Part shown: one piece after another, positions 3,278-5,942 of the stretch
How the letters are laid out: each line of letters starts with the position of its first letter
Numbering within the stretch: the first letter of the stretch is position 1
Sequence record: PP418987.1
Origin: Escherichia phage UPWr_E4
Direction: 5' to 3' (one strand)
Length of the DNA: 64,000 bases
Notes under the pieces: generated by a model
Told to the model about the DNA's origin: nothing
Database searches by the model: none
What the model saw: only the letters and a program-made list of their open reading frames with translations
Program-made: the position numbers and the translations under genes

Positions 3278-4306
3278 ATGTCATCAATAGCTTGGATTGA
3301 TAATGAGTTTGCATATCGTGCATTAGCTCATTTACCTAAATTCACACAAGTAAATAATAGTTCAACTTTTAAATTACGGTTTAGATGCCCAGTTTGTGGA
3401 GATTCAAAAACCGACCAAAATAAAGCGCGTGGATGGTATTATGGTGATAATAATGAAGGAAATATTCATTGTTATAACTGTAACTATCATGCGCCAATCG
3501 GAATATATTTAAAGGAGTTTGAACCTGATTTATATCGTGAGTATATCTTTGAAATAAGAAAAGAAAAAGGTAAAAGTCGTCCAGTAGAAAAACCTAAAGA
3601 ACTTCCTAAACATCCTGAGAAGAAAATAATTAAATCTCTTCCGTCATGTGTTAGATTAGATAAACTGGCGGAAGACCATCCAATTATAAAATATGTAAAA
3701 GCTCGTTGTATTCCAAAGGATAAATGGAAATATCTTTGGTTTACAACCGAATGGCCTAAATTAGTTAATAGCATAGCACCGGGAACATACAAAAAGGAAA
3801 TTTCTGAGCCTCGTCTTGTTATTCCAATTTATAATGCTAATGGAAAAGCTGAGTCTTTTCAAGGACGTGCATTAAAGAAAGATGCTCCTCAAAAATATAT
3901 CACCATCAAAGCTTATCCTGAGGCAACAAAAATATATGGAGTCGAACGAGTTAAAGATGGTGATGTATATGTTCTAGAAGGACCTATAGATTCACTTTTT
4001 ATTGAAAATGGTATAGCTATTACGGGTGGTCAATTAGACCTAGAAGTTGTTCCATTTAAAGATAGACGAGTGTGGGTTTTAGATAATGAACCTCGTCATC
4101 CTGACACTATTAAGCGAATGACTAAATTAGTTGATGCAGGAGAAAGGGTTATGTTTTGGGATAAATCTCCCTGGAAATCAAAAGATGTTAATGATATGAT
4201 TAGAAAGGAAGGTGCAACCCCTGAACAAATTATGGAATATATGAAAAATAATATTGCCCAGGGGTTAATGGCTAAAATGCGGTTATCTAAATATGCCAAG
4301 ATTTAA
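3278..4306 (+). CDS. 61: DNA primase gp61
   Basis: 342 aa; N-terminal zinc ribbon CPVCGDS...CYNCNYH; size and position as T4 gp61. Confidence 0.95.
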   Translation: MSSIAWIDNEFAYRALAHLPKFTQVNNSSTFKLRFRCPVCGDSKTDQNKARGWYYGDNNEGNIHCYNCNYHAPIGIYLKEFEPDLYREYIFEIRKEKGKSRPVEKPKELPKHPEKKIIKSLPSCVRLDKLAEDHPIIKYVKARCIPKDKWKYLWFTTEWPKLVNSIAPGTYKKEISEPRLVIPIYNANGKAESFQGRALKKDAPQKYITIKAYPEATKIYGVERVKDGDVYVLEGPIDSLFIENGIAITGGQLDLEVVPFKDRRVWVLDNEPRHPDTIKRMTKLVDAGERVMFWDKSPWKSKDVNDMIRKEGATPEQIMEYMKNNIAQGLMAKMRLSKYAKI

Positions 4307-4503
4307 ATTAACCCAACTAAAGCAAATGCTAAATCTACGAATGTATCAAGAGTAACTACTGGAATATTAATACCATGTGCAATTGCAATGGGTGATAAAA
4401 TAAAGTTCCAGAGTAAAATTCCTACCATAGCAGAAATAGTAAAAGCTATACGTTTTTTATTACCTTTTATGGCATCAACAAGTGCCATTAATTTTTGTGC
4501 CAT
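4303..4503 (-). CDS. Small hydrophobic two-TM membrane protein, convergent with gene 61
   Basis: 66-aa minus-strand ORF in an otherwise empty 296-bp gap; strong SD (AAGGAGG, 4-nt spacer) before ATG at 4503-4501; two hydrophobic segments. Confidence 0.6.
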   Translation of the reverse strand: MAQKLMALVDAIKGNKKRIAFTISAMVGILLWNFILSPIAIAHGINIPVVTLDTFVDLAFALVGLI

Positions 4504-4530
4504 GTGTCCTCCTTTAAATTAATATTTATC

Positions 4531-4549
4531 ACAAATTTCATAAATTTGT
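4531..4549. repeat. Perfect palindrome ACAAATTT-CAT-AAATTTGT overlapping the -35 of the downstream early promoter
   Basis: 8-bp arms with 3-bp spacer read directly from sequence. Confidence 0.6.
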
Positions 4550-4577
4550 TTACTTTCTCAGCTTGTTATGGTATTAT
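4548..4577 (+). promoter_or_regulatory. T4-type early promoter (GTTTAC ... TATTAT) for the nuclease-like ORF and dam
   Basis: -35 GTTTAC 4548-4553, 18-bp spacer, -10 TATTAT 4572-4577; about 25 nt upstream of the ATG at 4603. Confidence 0.6.
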
Positions 4578-4602
4578 AAAATAAATTGCTGAGGATGATA
4601 TA

Positions 4603-5163
4603 ATGATTAATAAAATTGTACATGAAATGGCTTTAAACGGAGATTCATATAAAATATCTGCCGTAGTTGAAAATTTCATACTTAATAAAGTAAAAGAATA
4701 TTTCACTGATTGTTCAGTTAGTTATCAAGAAAAAATGGTTTTAACCGATGATACTGAAAAATCAAATAATTTGTTTTGTTCTAATTTTATAACTAAGAAG
4801 CGTACTAGAAGATTTGATATTGTTATTTCTCGCAACGGTAAAAAGCATATAATTGAAATTAAACACCAAGTTGGTGGAGGTACAGCTATTGATTCGGTTG
4901 GAATATATTTAGAAGATAAAGAGAAATTAAAAGAATACACAAAAACTGAAAACCCTGTGTCATTGATGATATTAGATTTTTTGCCATGCGGATATTATCC
5001 ACGTAATAAATGGACAAAAAGAGAATCATTTACTGATAATCCAACCATCCAAGCAAGGTTTAATGAATATGCTAAATCACAAAACGTGTTAGTATTACTA
5101 TCAAATACATATGATGAAGAATTATATAATTCGTTTTTTGCTGCAATAAATGAGAGAATATAA
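4603..5163 (+). CDS. PD-(D/E)xK-type nuclease-like protein (VRR-NUC/restriction-endonuclease-like motif), translationally coupled to dam
   Basis: 186 aa; motif [17 protein letters not shown] (D ... E-x-K, 13-aa spacing); RBS GAGGA; stop TAA overlaps dam ATG (TAATG). Confidence 0.6.
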
Positions 5164-5942
5164 TGCTAGGAGCTATCGCGTATACAGGTAATAAACAGTC
5201 ATTATTACCTGAACTTAAGCCTCATTTTCCAAAATATGACAGATTCGTGGATTTATTTTGTGGAGGTTTATCAGTGTCTTTGAACGTCAATGGTCCTGTA
5301 TTGGCCAATGATATTCAAGAACCAATTATTGAAATGTATAAGCGTCTTATTAATGTATCATGGGATGACGTATTAAAAGTAATAAAGCAATATAAACTAT
5401 CAAAAACATCAAAAGAAGAGTTTTTGAAATTACGTGAAGATTATAATAAAACTAGAGATCCTCTTTTACTTTATGTTCTTCATTTTCACGGATTTAGTAA
5501 TATGATTCGTATAAACGATAAAGGAAATTTTACTACTCCGTTTGGAAAAAGAACTATAAACAAAAATAGTGAAAAACGCTTTAATCACTTTAAGCAAAAT
5601 TGTGATAAAATAATCTTTAGTTCATTGCATTTTAAAGATGTCAAAATTCTAGACGGCGATTTTGTATATGTGGACCCTCCATATCTTATAACAGTTGCTG
5701 ATTATAATAAATTTTGGTCAGAAGAAGAAGAAAAAGACCTTTTAAATCTTTTAGATTCTTTAAATGACAGAGGAATAAAATTTGGACTGTCGAATGTTTT
5801 AGAGCATCACGGAAAGGAAAACACTCTTCTTAAAGAATGGTCTAAAAAATATAATGTTAAGCATCTTAATAAAAAATACGTCTTTAACATATATCATTCC
5901 AAAGAAAAGAATGGAACTGATGAAGTATATATTTTTAATTAA
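5163..5942 (+). CDS. dam: DNA adenine methyltransferase Dam (GATC N6-adenine MTase)
   Basis: 259 aa; FCGGLSV (SAM-binding) and DPPY catalytic motif; N-terminus [18 protein letters not shown] as T4 Dam. Confidence 0.95.

Follow-up and report, generated by a model that had tools for sequence, protein, structure and literature searches.

What does a phage gain from a DNA adenine methyltransferase (Dam) of its own, and what are the extra genes that accompany it? The Dam enzymes of phages T2 and T4 are textbook enzymes, and how they benefit the phage has, to our knowledge, never been clear. We examined a 64,000-nucleotide stretch of Escherichia phage UPWr_E4 (PP418987.1; the window), in which two extra open reading frames (ORFs) lie between the primase gene 61 and dam: one of 186 amino acids (aa) directly upstream of dam on the plus strand, and one of 66 aa on the opposite strand. 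A first-pass annotation, made from the letters alone, had read the three genes as a nuclease-methyltransferase module with a membrane component, resembling restriction-modification (RM) or exclusion systems. Our analysis favors the nuclease-methyltransferase part of this reading. With a probability of roughly 0.6, the 186-aa gene and dam form a phage-borne, Dam-protected type II RM cassette, probably directed at GATC, and the 66-aa gene appears to lie outside it.

The 186-aa ORF is present where it had been claimed (Table 1) and evolves as a protein-coding gene, with nonsynonymous polymorphism (pN) far below synonymous polymorphism (pS), a dN/dS of about 0.17–0.2, and conservation about equal to that of the primase gp61 when the same phage pairs are compared. 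By these measures it is a real gene under purifying selection. Its product is assigned to phrog_8706, an annotation group without a function, and its relatives are few: about nine lineages were recovered from searches of 5.8 and 1.84 billion proteins, and only two loci from IMG/VR. Two further proteins (P0008 and P0010), in which a nuclease fragment is joined to unrelated domains (PF01370 and PF18343/PF03590, respectively), are probably chimeras produced by assembly and were left out of the alignments. In an alignment of nine family members, reaching down to 29% identity, the invariant residues are E23, D72, E85, K87, H88, Q89, and G93–S98; the PD-(D/E)xK-like motif seen at first pass is present, and its triad of D72, E85, and K87 is unchanged in nine of nine. 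No bridge from this family to known families emerged when 1.84 billion representatives were searched exhaustively with a profile, nor from two word-indexed searches. Among bacteria and archaea no relative was found either, in a pattern scan that took one genome from each of 185,579 species. In the PDB, neither the protein sequence nor the family profile had a match at E ≤ 10, and NCBIfam searches returned noise only. In the GenBank record of phage Shinka the ORF has independently been labeled “putative DpnII restriction endonuclease,” and in all other records seen it is “hypothetical” or evidently misannotated. The case of two ubiquitous, already characterized T-even genes, which the first-pass annotation had allowed for, does not apply: both ORFs are “hypothetical” almost everywhere, and literature searches yielded no paper on either.

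The AlphaFold2 model of the 186-aa protein (pLDDT 80.7, pTM 0.80) resembles restriction enzymes, and nearly all of its best Foldseek matches are PD-(D/E)xK nucleases, albeit of many types. An independent BFVD model of the homologue from Dhakavirus MX01 superposes on it at a TM-score of 0.85. The fold check proposed at first pass thus came out in favor of a restriction-enzyme-like fold with a conserved catalytic triad. A MutH-like or Mrr-like fold, also put forward there, was not among the top Foldseek matches; the comparison with MutH/Sau3AI-type enzymes accordingly found no structural similarity to MutH among them. From the predicted fold and the conserved residues, we infer that the protein is a nuclease, a compact PD-(D/E)xK endonuclease with D72 and E85-x-K87 at its active site (hereafter the candidate nuclease). 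A likeness to EcoRI noticed by eye (EAKHQG/GNAIER-like) was rejected, as hhalign was negative (probability 0.2%, with an EcoRI sequence entered by hand).

Several weak signals agree in pointing to the DpnII/LlaDCHI group of GATC enzymes. Four of the nine family members matched the Pfam DpnII family (PF04556) in the same register, the best (P0009) with 22.5 bits and the window protein with 16.8 bits, where the gathering threshold is 23 bits. The PADLOC model PDLC03548 matched the window protein with E = 9e-5 and P0004 with E = 5e-6; this is a LlaDCHI/DpnII model, to which R.LlaDCHI itself scores E = 1e-134. When P0009 was compared by tblastn with 7.3 Gb of plasmid sequence, the only two matches were R.LlaDCHI, encoded on pSRQ700, and its 98.7%-identical counterpart on another Lactococcus plasmid. 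Finally, hhalign against a DpnII-family profile (11 proteins, from plasmids and the protein database) aligned residues 16–113 with LlaDCHI residues 158–254 over 96 columns (E = 1.1e-4, probability 56%), pairing SxxVE23 with SGTTME, RRFD72 with RRFD, IE85IK with IETN, and GGGTA with GGGSK. The DpnII family itself is invariant (LlaDCHI numbering) at D210, E225, N227, and G233-S234-K235, and in its N-terminal part at G146...S153..K157..G161. In the phage protein the D, the E, and the GGG align with these invariants, with K87 at the position of N227 and T94-A95 at that of S234-K235. The relationship is therefore consistent but sub-threshold: the 186-aa protein resembles the C-terminal, catalytic half of DpnII-type enzymes, although its membership in PF04556 is not formally established.

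The strongest evidence for the predicted cassette is the coupling of the 186-aa gene to Dam. The Dam protein of the window is identical at 259 of 259 positions to T2 Dam, a characterized GATC methyltransferase, and at 253 of 259 to T4 Dam. As claimed at first pass, the stop codon of the 186-aa gene overlaps the dam start codon in TAATG. All homologues found lie directly upstream of a D12 methyltransferase gene, either overlapping it (by TAATG, ATGA, or 7–35 nt) or abutting it; this overlap or abutment is kept in MX01, L010, L006, L013, KPV15, L011, and L012, the exception being T2 (a 1-nt deletion). The pair occupies three or more genome contexts: between 61 and 56 in Tequatrovirus, in Dhakavirus MX01, and in two metagenomic lineages; in a denB...nuclease-dam...ndd arrangement in Klebsiella Jiaodavirus KPV15; and directly upstream of rIIA in L012. 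Identities fall in the same rank order for the candidate nuclease (63, 57, 41, 32, and 29%) and for Dam (71, 72, 62, 55, and 52%), with the former evolving faster. In the phage collection, both genes are contiguous in 148 records, and six Klebsiella phages, of which KPV15 was checked for Dam adjacency, also carry the candidate nuclease (∼154 in total). Some 35 records have Dam only, with the nuclease gene deleted, zero have the nuclease gene only, and several hundred relatives (∼500) lack both and keep the flanking genes. Loss of the nuclease gene with Dam kept, and never the reverse, is the pattern predicted for a toxic restriction gene. Taken by what defines a type II RM system, a predicted PD-(D/E)xK core and an adjacent methyltransferase are present, and the candidate nuclease was never found without Dam; the triad, the predicted fold, the weak DpnII-family similarity, and the strict coupling in several genera and positions all support the RM-like module that had been proposed.

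The same distribution bears on three other explanations. The candidate nuclease could be a free-standing, selfish endonuclease of the homing type, like the neighboring segF of T4, with a long, specific target near the 61–56 junction and with Dam as its hitch-hiking cargo. Its patchy presence among close relatives, its own early promoter (below), and its position at a hot spot for insertions (segF in T4, between 56 and soc; an extra gp56-like fragment in L010) would suit such an element. However, a homing enzyme tied to one locus is not expected to be accompanied by Dam without exception at three unrelated genome positions, and type II restriction enzymes are the protein's best matches in both sequence and structure, so we regard this explanation as quite unlikely. 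We find it improbable, too, that the pair acts in methyl-directed nicking or repair in the manner of MutH or dcm-vsr, with GATC methylation serving strand discrimination. The nuclease and methyltransferase genes of E. coli dcm-vsr overlap in a similar way, and a nuclease that senses GATC methylation need not make double-strand breaks, but the sequence signal leads towards DpnII-type restriction enzymes, and a repair role does not predict that the nuclease is frequently lost with Dam kept and never the reverse. Lastly, T-even phages encode several early nucleases, and the predicted fold, with its matches of many PD-(D/E)xK types, gives no specificity; the protein might thus be an active nuclease unrelated to Dam methylation, degrading host or plasmid DNA or acting in counter-defense, and linked to dam through shared early expression. 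This is highly improbable in our estimate, given that gene order and coupling persist down to 29% nuclease identity in three contexts, and that all of the ∼500 dam-less relatives with the flanking genes are also without the nuclease.

The early promoter claimed for the 186-aa gene was recovered as GTTTAC-N17-TATTAT. The pattern GTTTAC-N16-18-TATWAT has eight sites in the window, all on the plus strand, versus 0.14 expected; a generic sigma-70 scan alone performed at chance level and was uninformative. A promoter of the GTTTAC type is kept upstream of the homologues in T2, MX01, L008, L010, and KPV15. The nuclease-dam operon is thus predicted to be driven by its own T4-type early promoter. The “perfect palindrome” described between the divergent genes did not hold up: its two A/T-rich arms, of 8 bp each, enclose a center of 3 nt that is not palindromic, and its folding free energy is −3.2 kcal/mol. 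T2 is without nine nucleotides of it (4529–4537), and other lineages have no counterpart. We therefore rejected it as a functional element, being weak and not conserved; the inverted repeat is probably the chance product of a 9-nt imperfect tandem duplication.

The first-pass annotation was unsure whether T4 has homologues at this position. For the 66-aa ORF it does (92% identity, unannotated in AF158101), and for the 186-aa gene it does not, this gene having been deleted. T4 lacks the 548 bp corresponding to window positions 4528–5075, a deletion bounded by the 8-bp direct repeat ATCACAAA; at the junction T4 has ATCGCAAA. Lost with these bases are the early promoter and 157 codons, and a 29-codon 3′ remnant is left that is translatable but dead. 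As read from this alignment, T4 is the derived state, nuclease-minus and Dam-plus, to which this deletion between repeats gave rise. The T4 remnant also has in common with the T2 allele a 1-nt deletion in a run of T (window position 5133), which in T2 (L004 1501–2046) gives a protein of 181 aa with its last eight residues changed (ending ...NSFLLQ) and a 13-nt gap to dam. As this deletion is common to T2 and T4, impairment of the candidate nuclease in the T2/T4 lineage may predate the larger deletion in T4. The T2–T4 length difference at the locus is 537 bp, close to the insertion of 536 bp that Miner and Hattman (J Bacteriol, 1988) reportedly described 5′ to dam in T2.

How would a Dam-protected cassette work? 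In the mechanism that we favor, both genes would be transcribed from their own early promoter and translated as a coupled pair, and the 186-aa enzyme would cut where Dam methylation protects, most likely at unmethylated GATC. Phage DNA would be packaged methylated and re-methylated by the co-expressed Dam, and so be spared, while DNA in the infected cell without GATC methylation would be cut. The likeliest targets would be competitor DNAs, such as co-infecting phages without dam or other under-methylated mobile DNA. Since enterobacterial chromosomes are Dam-methylated, competitor DNA is a likelier target than the host chromosome, although this choice of target is speculation. In that case the cassette would be a selfish element that serves competition, and T4 Dam would be an orphan methyltransferase left over from it, with T4 and ∼35 relatives in the nuclease-minus, Dam-plus state.

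A number of points weigh against this mechanism. The hosts are Dam-positive and the phage DNA presumably carries glucosyl-hydroxymethylcytosine, so it is not obvious why protection would be needed or what would be cut, and the activity, specificity, and methylation sensitivity of the 186-aa protein are predictions from its sequence. No member of the family (of nine) reaches the PF04556 gathering score, and five of nine, including the three most divergent, have no match at all. The hhalign probability to the DpnII family is just the 56% given above. The protein is without the N-terminal ∼140 residues of the DpnII enzymes and their invariant GxExGxxSNxRKNRxG motif, and its lysine is placed differently (the canonical ExK, versus ExN...GSK in the DpnII family). 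The distribution counts are phylogenetically non-independent, most records being >95% identical, and represent few independent events. The nearest plasmid relatives of T-even Dam (∼38–43% identity) are the methyltransferase halves of type IIS AlwI-family/FokI-like systems (L017–L022, on Firmicutes and Psychrobacter plasmids), and a search through the phage Dam for bacterial neighbors of the DpnII type turned up none, finding instead these AlwI/FokI-type systems and a T4-like contig; the candidate nuclease and Dam therefore need not share one bacterial ancestor. The T2 allele has an altered C-terminus and is uncoupled from dam by its 1-nt deletion, and although T2 has been studied for decades, we know of no report of a GATC nuclease from it.

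The T4-like contig reached through Dam (L016, JBOFGC010000160.1) is filed as a “Bacilli bacterium” metagenome-assembled genome. It encodes gp61-, gp56-, and DexA-like proteins and a 44%-identical Dam, which is preceded by an exonuclease-like gene and not by a member of the 186-aa nuclease family. This contig is evidently a mis-binned piece of a T4-like phage, as judged from its gene content.

We also counted GATC in two genomes. Of the 4-bp palindromes in the window (1–64000) it is the most strongly depleted, with 81 sites observed versus 215 expected (observed/expected 0.38), and in the dam-less phage RB69 (L034 1–50000) 28 sites are present versus 174 expected (0.16). The classical explanation of GATC depletion is MutH/Dam counter-selection. 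Selection by nucleases acting on unmethylated GATC is compatible with the depletion, and the MutH-based explanation fits equally well. About two thirds of the Tequatrovirus records are without dam. A bolder version of the proposed mechanism, which we consider unlikely, would make the candidate nuclease a phage-versus-phage weapon that cuts unmethylated GATC even in DNA containing hydroxymethylcytosine or its glucosylated form, thereby destroying or converting the genomes of dam-less T-even co-infectors; orphan Dam, as in T4, would be kept as immunity to nuclease-carrying relatives, and the nuclease would contribute to the depletion of GATC.

The 66-aa gene proved to be a separate matter. It lies on the minus strand, as claimed, with a near-consensus Shine-Dalgarno (SD) sequence (AAGGAGG) four bases before its ATG, and converges on gene 61 so closely that the two stops overlap by 4 nt (TTAA). 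It is the odd-strand gene of its neighborhood, as had been remarked, and its RB69 homologue is the only plus-strand gene among 95 in the first 50 kb. The description as a protein with two transmembrane segments holds for one of them: a hydrophobic segment at about residues 19–42, preceded by a basic N-terminus, is kept across the family, whereas the C-terminal one is hydrophobic only in Tequatrovirus and Mosigvirus. The gene belongs to phrog_2024 and occurs in 692 phage records, T4 included, with 22–54% identity to divergent lineages and W32, N33, P38, G44, and P48 conserved. In the T4 record AF158101 an intact 66-aa ORF between dam and 61 (L001 3239–3436) is unannotated; newer T4 records call it “hypothetical.” Upstream of its ATG the window carries GATAAATA, which matches the T4 late consensus TATAAATA at seven of eight positions and lies at −27. 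A NATAAATA motif occurs at −27 to −29 in seven of eight lineages, with a perfect TATAAATA in MX01 and L010, and Mosigvirus has AATAAATA. ATAAATA heptamers number only 13 on both strands of the window, and the T4 deletion ends exactly beside the motif. This conserved late-promoter-like motif would better explain the opposite orientation of the 66-aa gene, which probably is a late gene for a single-pass membrane protein.

These observations leave little room for the three-part module of the first-pass annotation, in which the nuclease, the methyltransferase, and the divergent membrane protein would together serve exclusion or anti-defense. In Tequatrovirus and Dhakavirus the two units are indeed adjacent and divergent and have a common 99-bp control region. 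Distribution, however, largely refutes the idea. The 66-aa gene is always convergent with gene 61, also in Mosigvirus (RB69ORF029w), where neither dam nor the nuclease is present; it is found in 692 records versus ∼154 with the nuclease; and the KPV15 cassette has no divergent small ORF upstream. Its promoter motif is, moreover, of the late and not the early type. A joint function of all three genes is hardly credible on these grounds. By its distribution the 66-aa gene is an independent, conserved gene that accompanies 61 and lies outside the cassette.

If Dam is normally the protective half of a cassette, T4 Dam becomes an orphan of known origin, and the “536-bp” difference between T2 and T4 takes on a meaning. 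Offensive restriction, most plausibly against competing phages, would then be carried by a virulent phage whose own DNA is modified, and a very small, divergent endonuclease of the GATC family would join the repertoire of restriction enzymes. Were the bolder phage-versus-phage version true, the long-unexplained Dam of the T-even phages would gain a function. Apart from this, a conserved gene for a probable small membrane protein beside 61 is missing from the T4 reference annotation.

The features of the locus are collected in Table 1. Gene order in the window is as in T4: 41, dmd, 61.4, sp, 61.2, 61.1, 61, the two extra ORFs, dam, 56 (dCTPase), and soc. As 951 bases at the locus are 99–100% identical to many Tequatrovirus genomes, the window is by this comparison Tequatrovirus.

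Table 1. Positions of genes and sequence elements around the candidate nuclease-dam pair in the window.
Feature	Position	Strand	Remark
Gene 61, DNA primase	3278..4306	+	Upstream neighbor; convergent with 66-aa ORF
66-aa gene, probable small membrane protein	4303..4503	-	RB69ORF029w homologue; phrog_2024; gene 61 neighbor
Late-promoter-like motif GATAAATA	4521..4528	-	27 nt before ATG of small ORF
Direct repeat ATCACAAA, left copy (8 bp)	4528..4535	.	Left end of T4 deletion; T4 alignment
Interrupted A/T-rich inverted repeat	4531..4549	.	8-bp arms, 3-nt center
Predicted T4-type early promoter GTTTAC-N17-TATTAT	4548..4577	+	Upstream of nuclease-dam operon
SD sequence GAGGA of 186-aa ORF	4591-4595	+	
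186-aa gene, predicted PD-(D/E)xK nuclease, candidate restriction subunit	4603..5163	+	
Predicted catalytic codons	D72, 4816-4818; E85, 4855-4857; K87, 4861-4863		GGGTAIDS motif after them
Direct repeat ATCACAAA, right copy	5076..5083	.	T4 retains sequence from here: dead 29-codon remnant
TAATG, nuclease stop/dam start overlap	5161..5165	+	
dam, D12-class N6-adenine (GATC) DNA methyltransferase	5163..5942	+	PF02086, E 6.5e-51

The stretch from 61 to soc is an indel hot spot. Next to soc, on its gene 56 side, T4 carries segF, a gene for a homing endonuclease (L001 1107–1781), and the window is without it at the corresponding place (6521–6590). A 118-aa ORF (2752–3108) stands in the window where T4 carries the 208-aa 61.2. 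In L010, a metagenomic T4-like lineage, the small ORF and the nuclease gene are separated by a 93-aa ORF (3657–3938). Its match is to the C-terminal half of a family of NTP pyrophosphohydrolases (gp56-like; phrog_4856, E = 9e-40), suggesting that the locus was rearranged or partly duplicated. Window positions 5943–5968, immediately before gene 56, carry TTGCTTA and, about 12 nt on, TATAAT, which to the eye looks like a MotA-box middle promoter; the T4 record places oriA and its primer transcript at the matching position.

Among known systems, the closest parallels to the predicted cassette are the DpnII, LlaDCHI, and MboI RM systems, in which a PD-(D/E)xK gene likewise adjoins, and overlaps, a D12 GATC methyltransferase gene. 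The core motifs in common are the SxxxE helix, RRFD, IE-x-(K/N), and GGG(S/T), and the DpnII-type system of Haloarcula pHsi540 has the same order of restriction gene and then Dam. The phage protein differs in its size (186 aa versus about 290–300 aa) and in being without the N-terminal domain; the phage cassette has one methyltransferase where DpnII-type systems have two, and it resides in a virulent phage with presumably hypermodified DNA and Dam-positive hosts. The small type IIP enzymes of the MunI/EcoRI kind provide a structural class for comparison, with no detectable sequence relationship to the phage protein and with sites centered on AATT instead of GATC. For the 66-aa gene the counterpart is RB69ORF029w: the two are 54% identical, both overlap and converge on the end of 61, and each is the lone opposite-strand gene of its early region. 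A lytic virus with a GATC endonuclease has a precedent in chlorella virus PBCV-1, whose R.CviAI is blocked by N6-methyladenine and accompanied by its methyltransferase M.CviAI. There the unmethylated host DNA is the target, whereas the hosts of the phage cassette are Dam-positive and another target must be assumed. A further counterpart is T4 Dam, the same gene at the same 61–56 locus, which is an orphan in T4 but not in the window phage, T2, and ∼150 relatives. On the sequence comparisons made here, the cassette is best filed as a divergent, uncharacterized member of the type II RM systems, carried by T-even phages.

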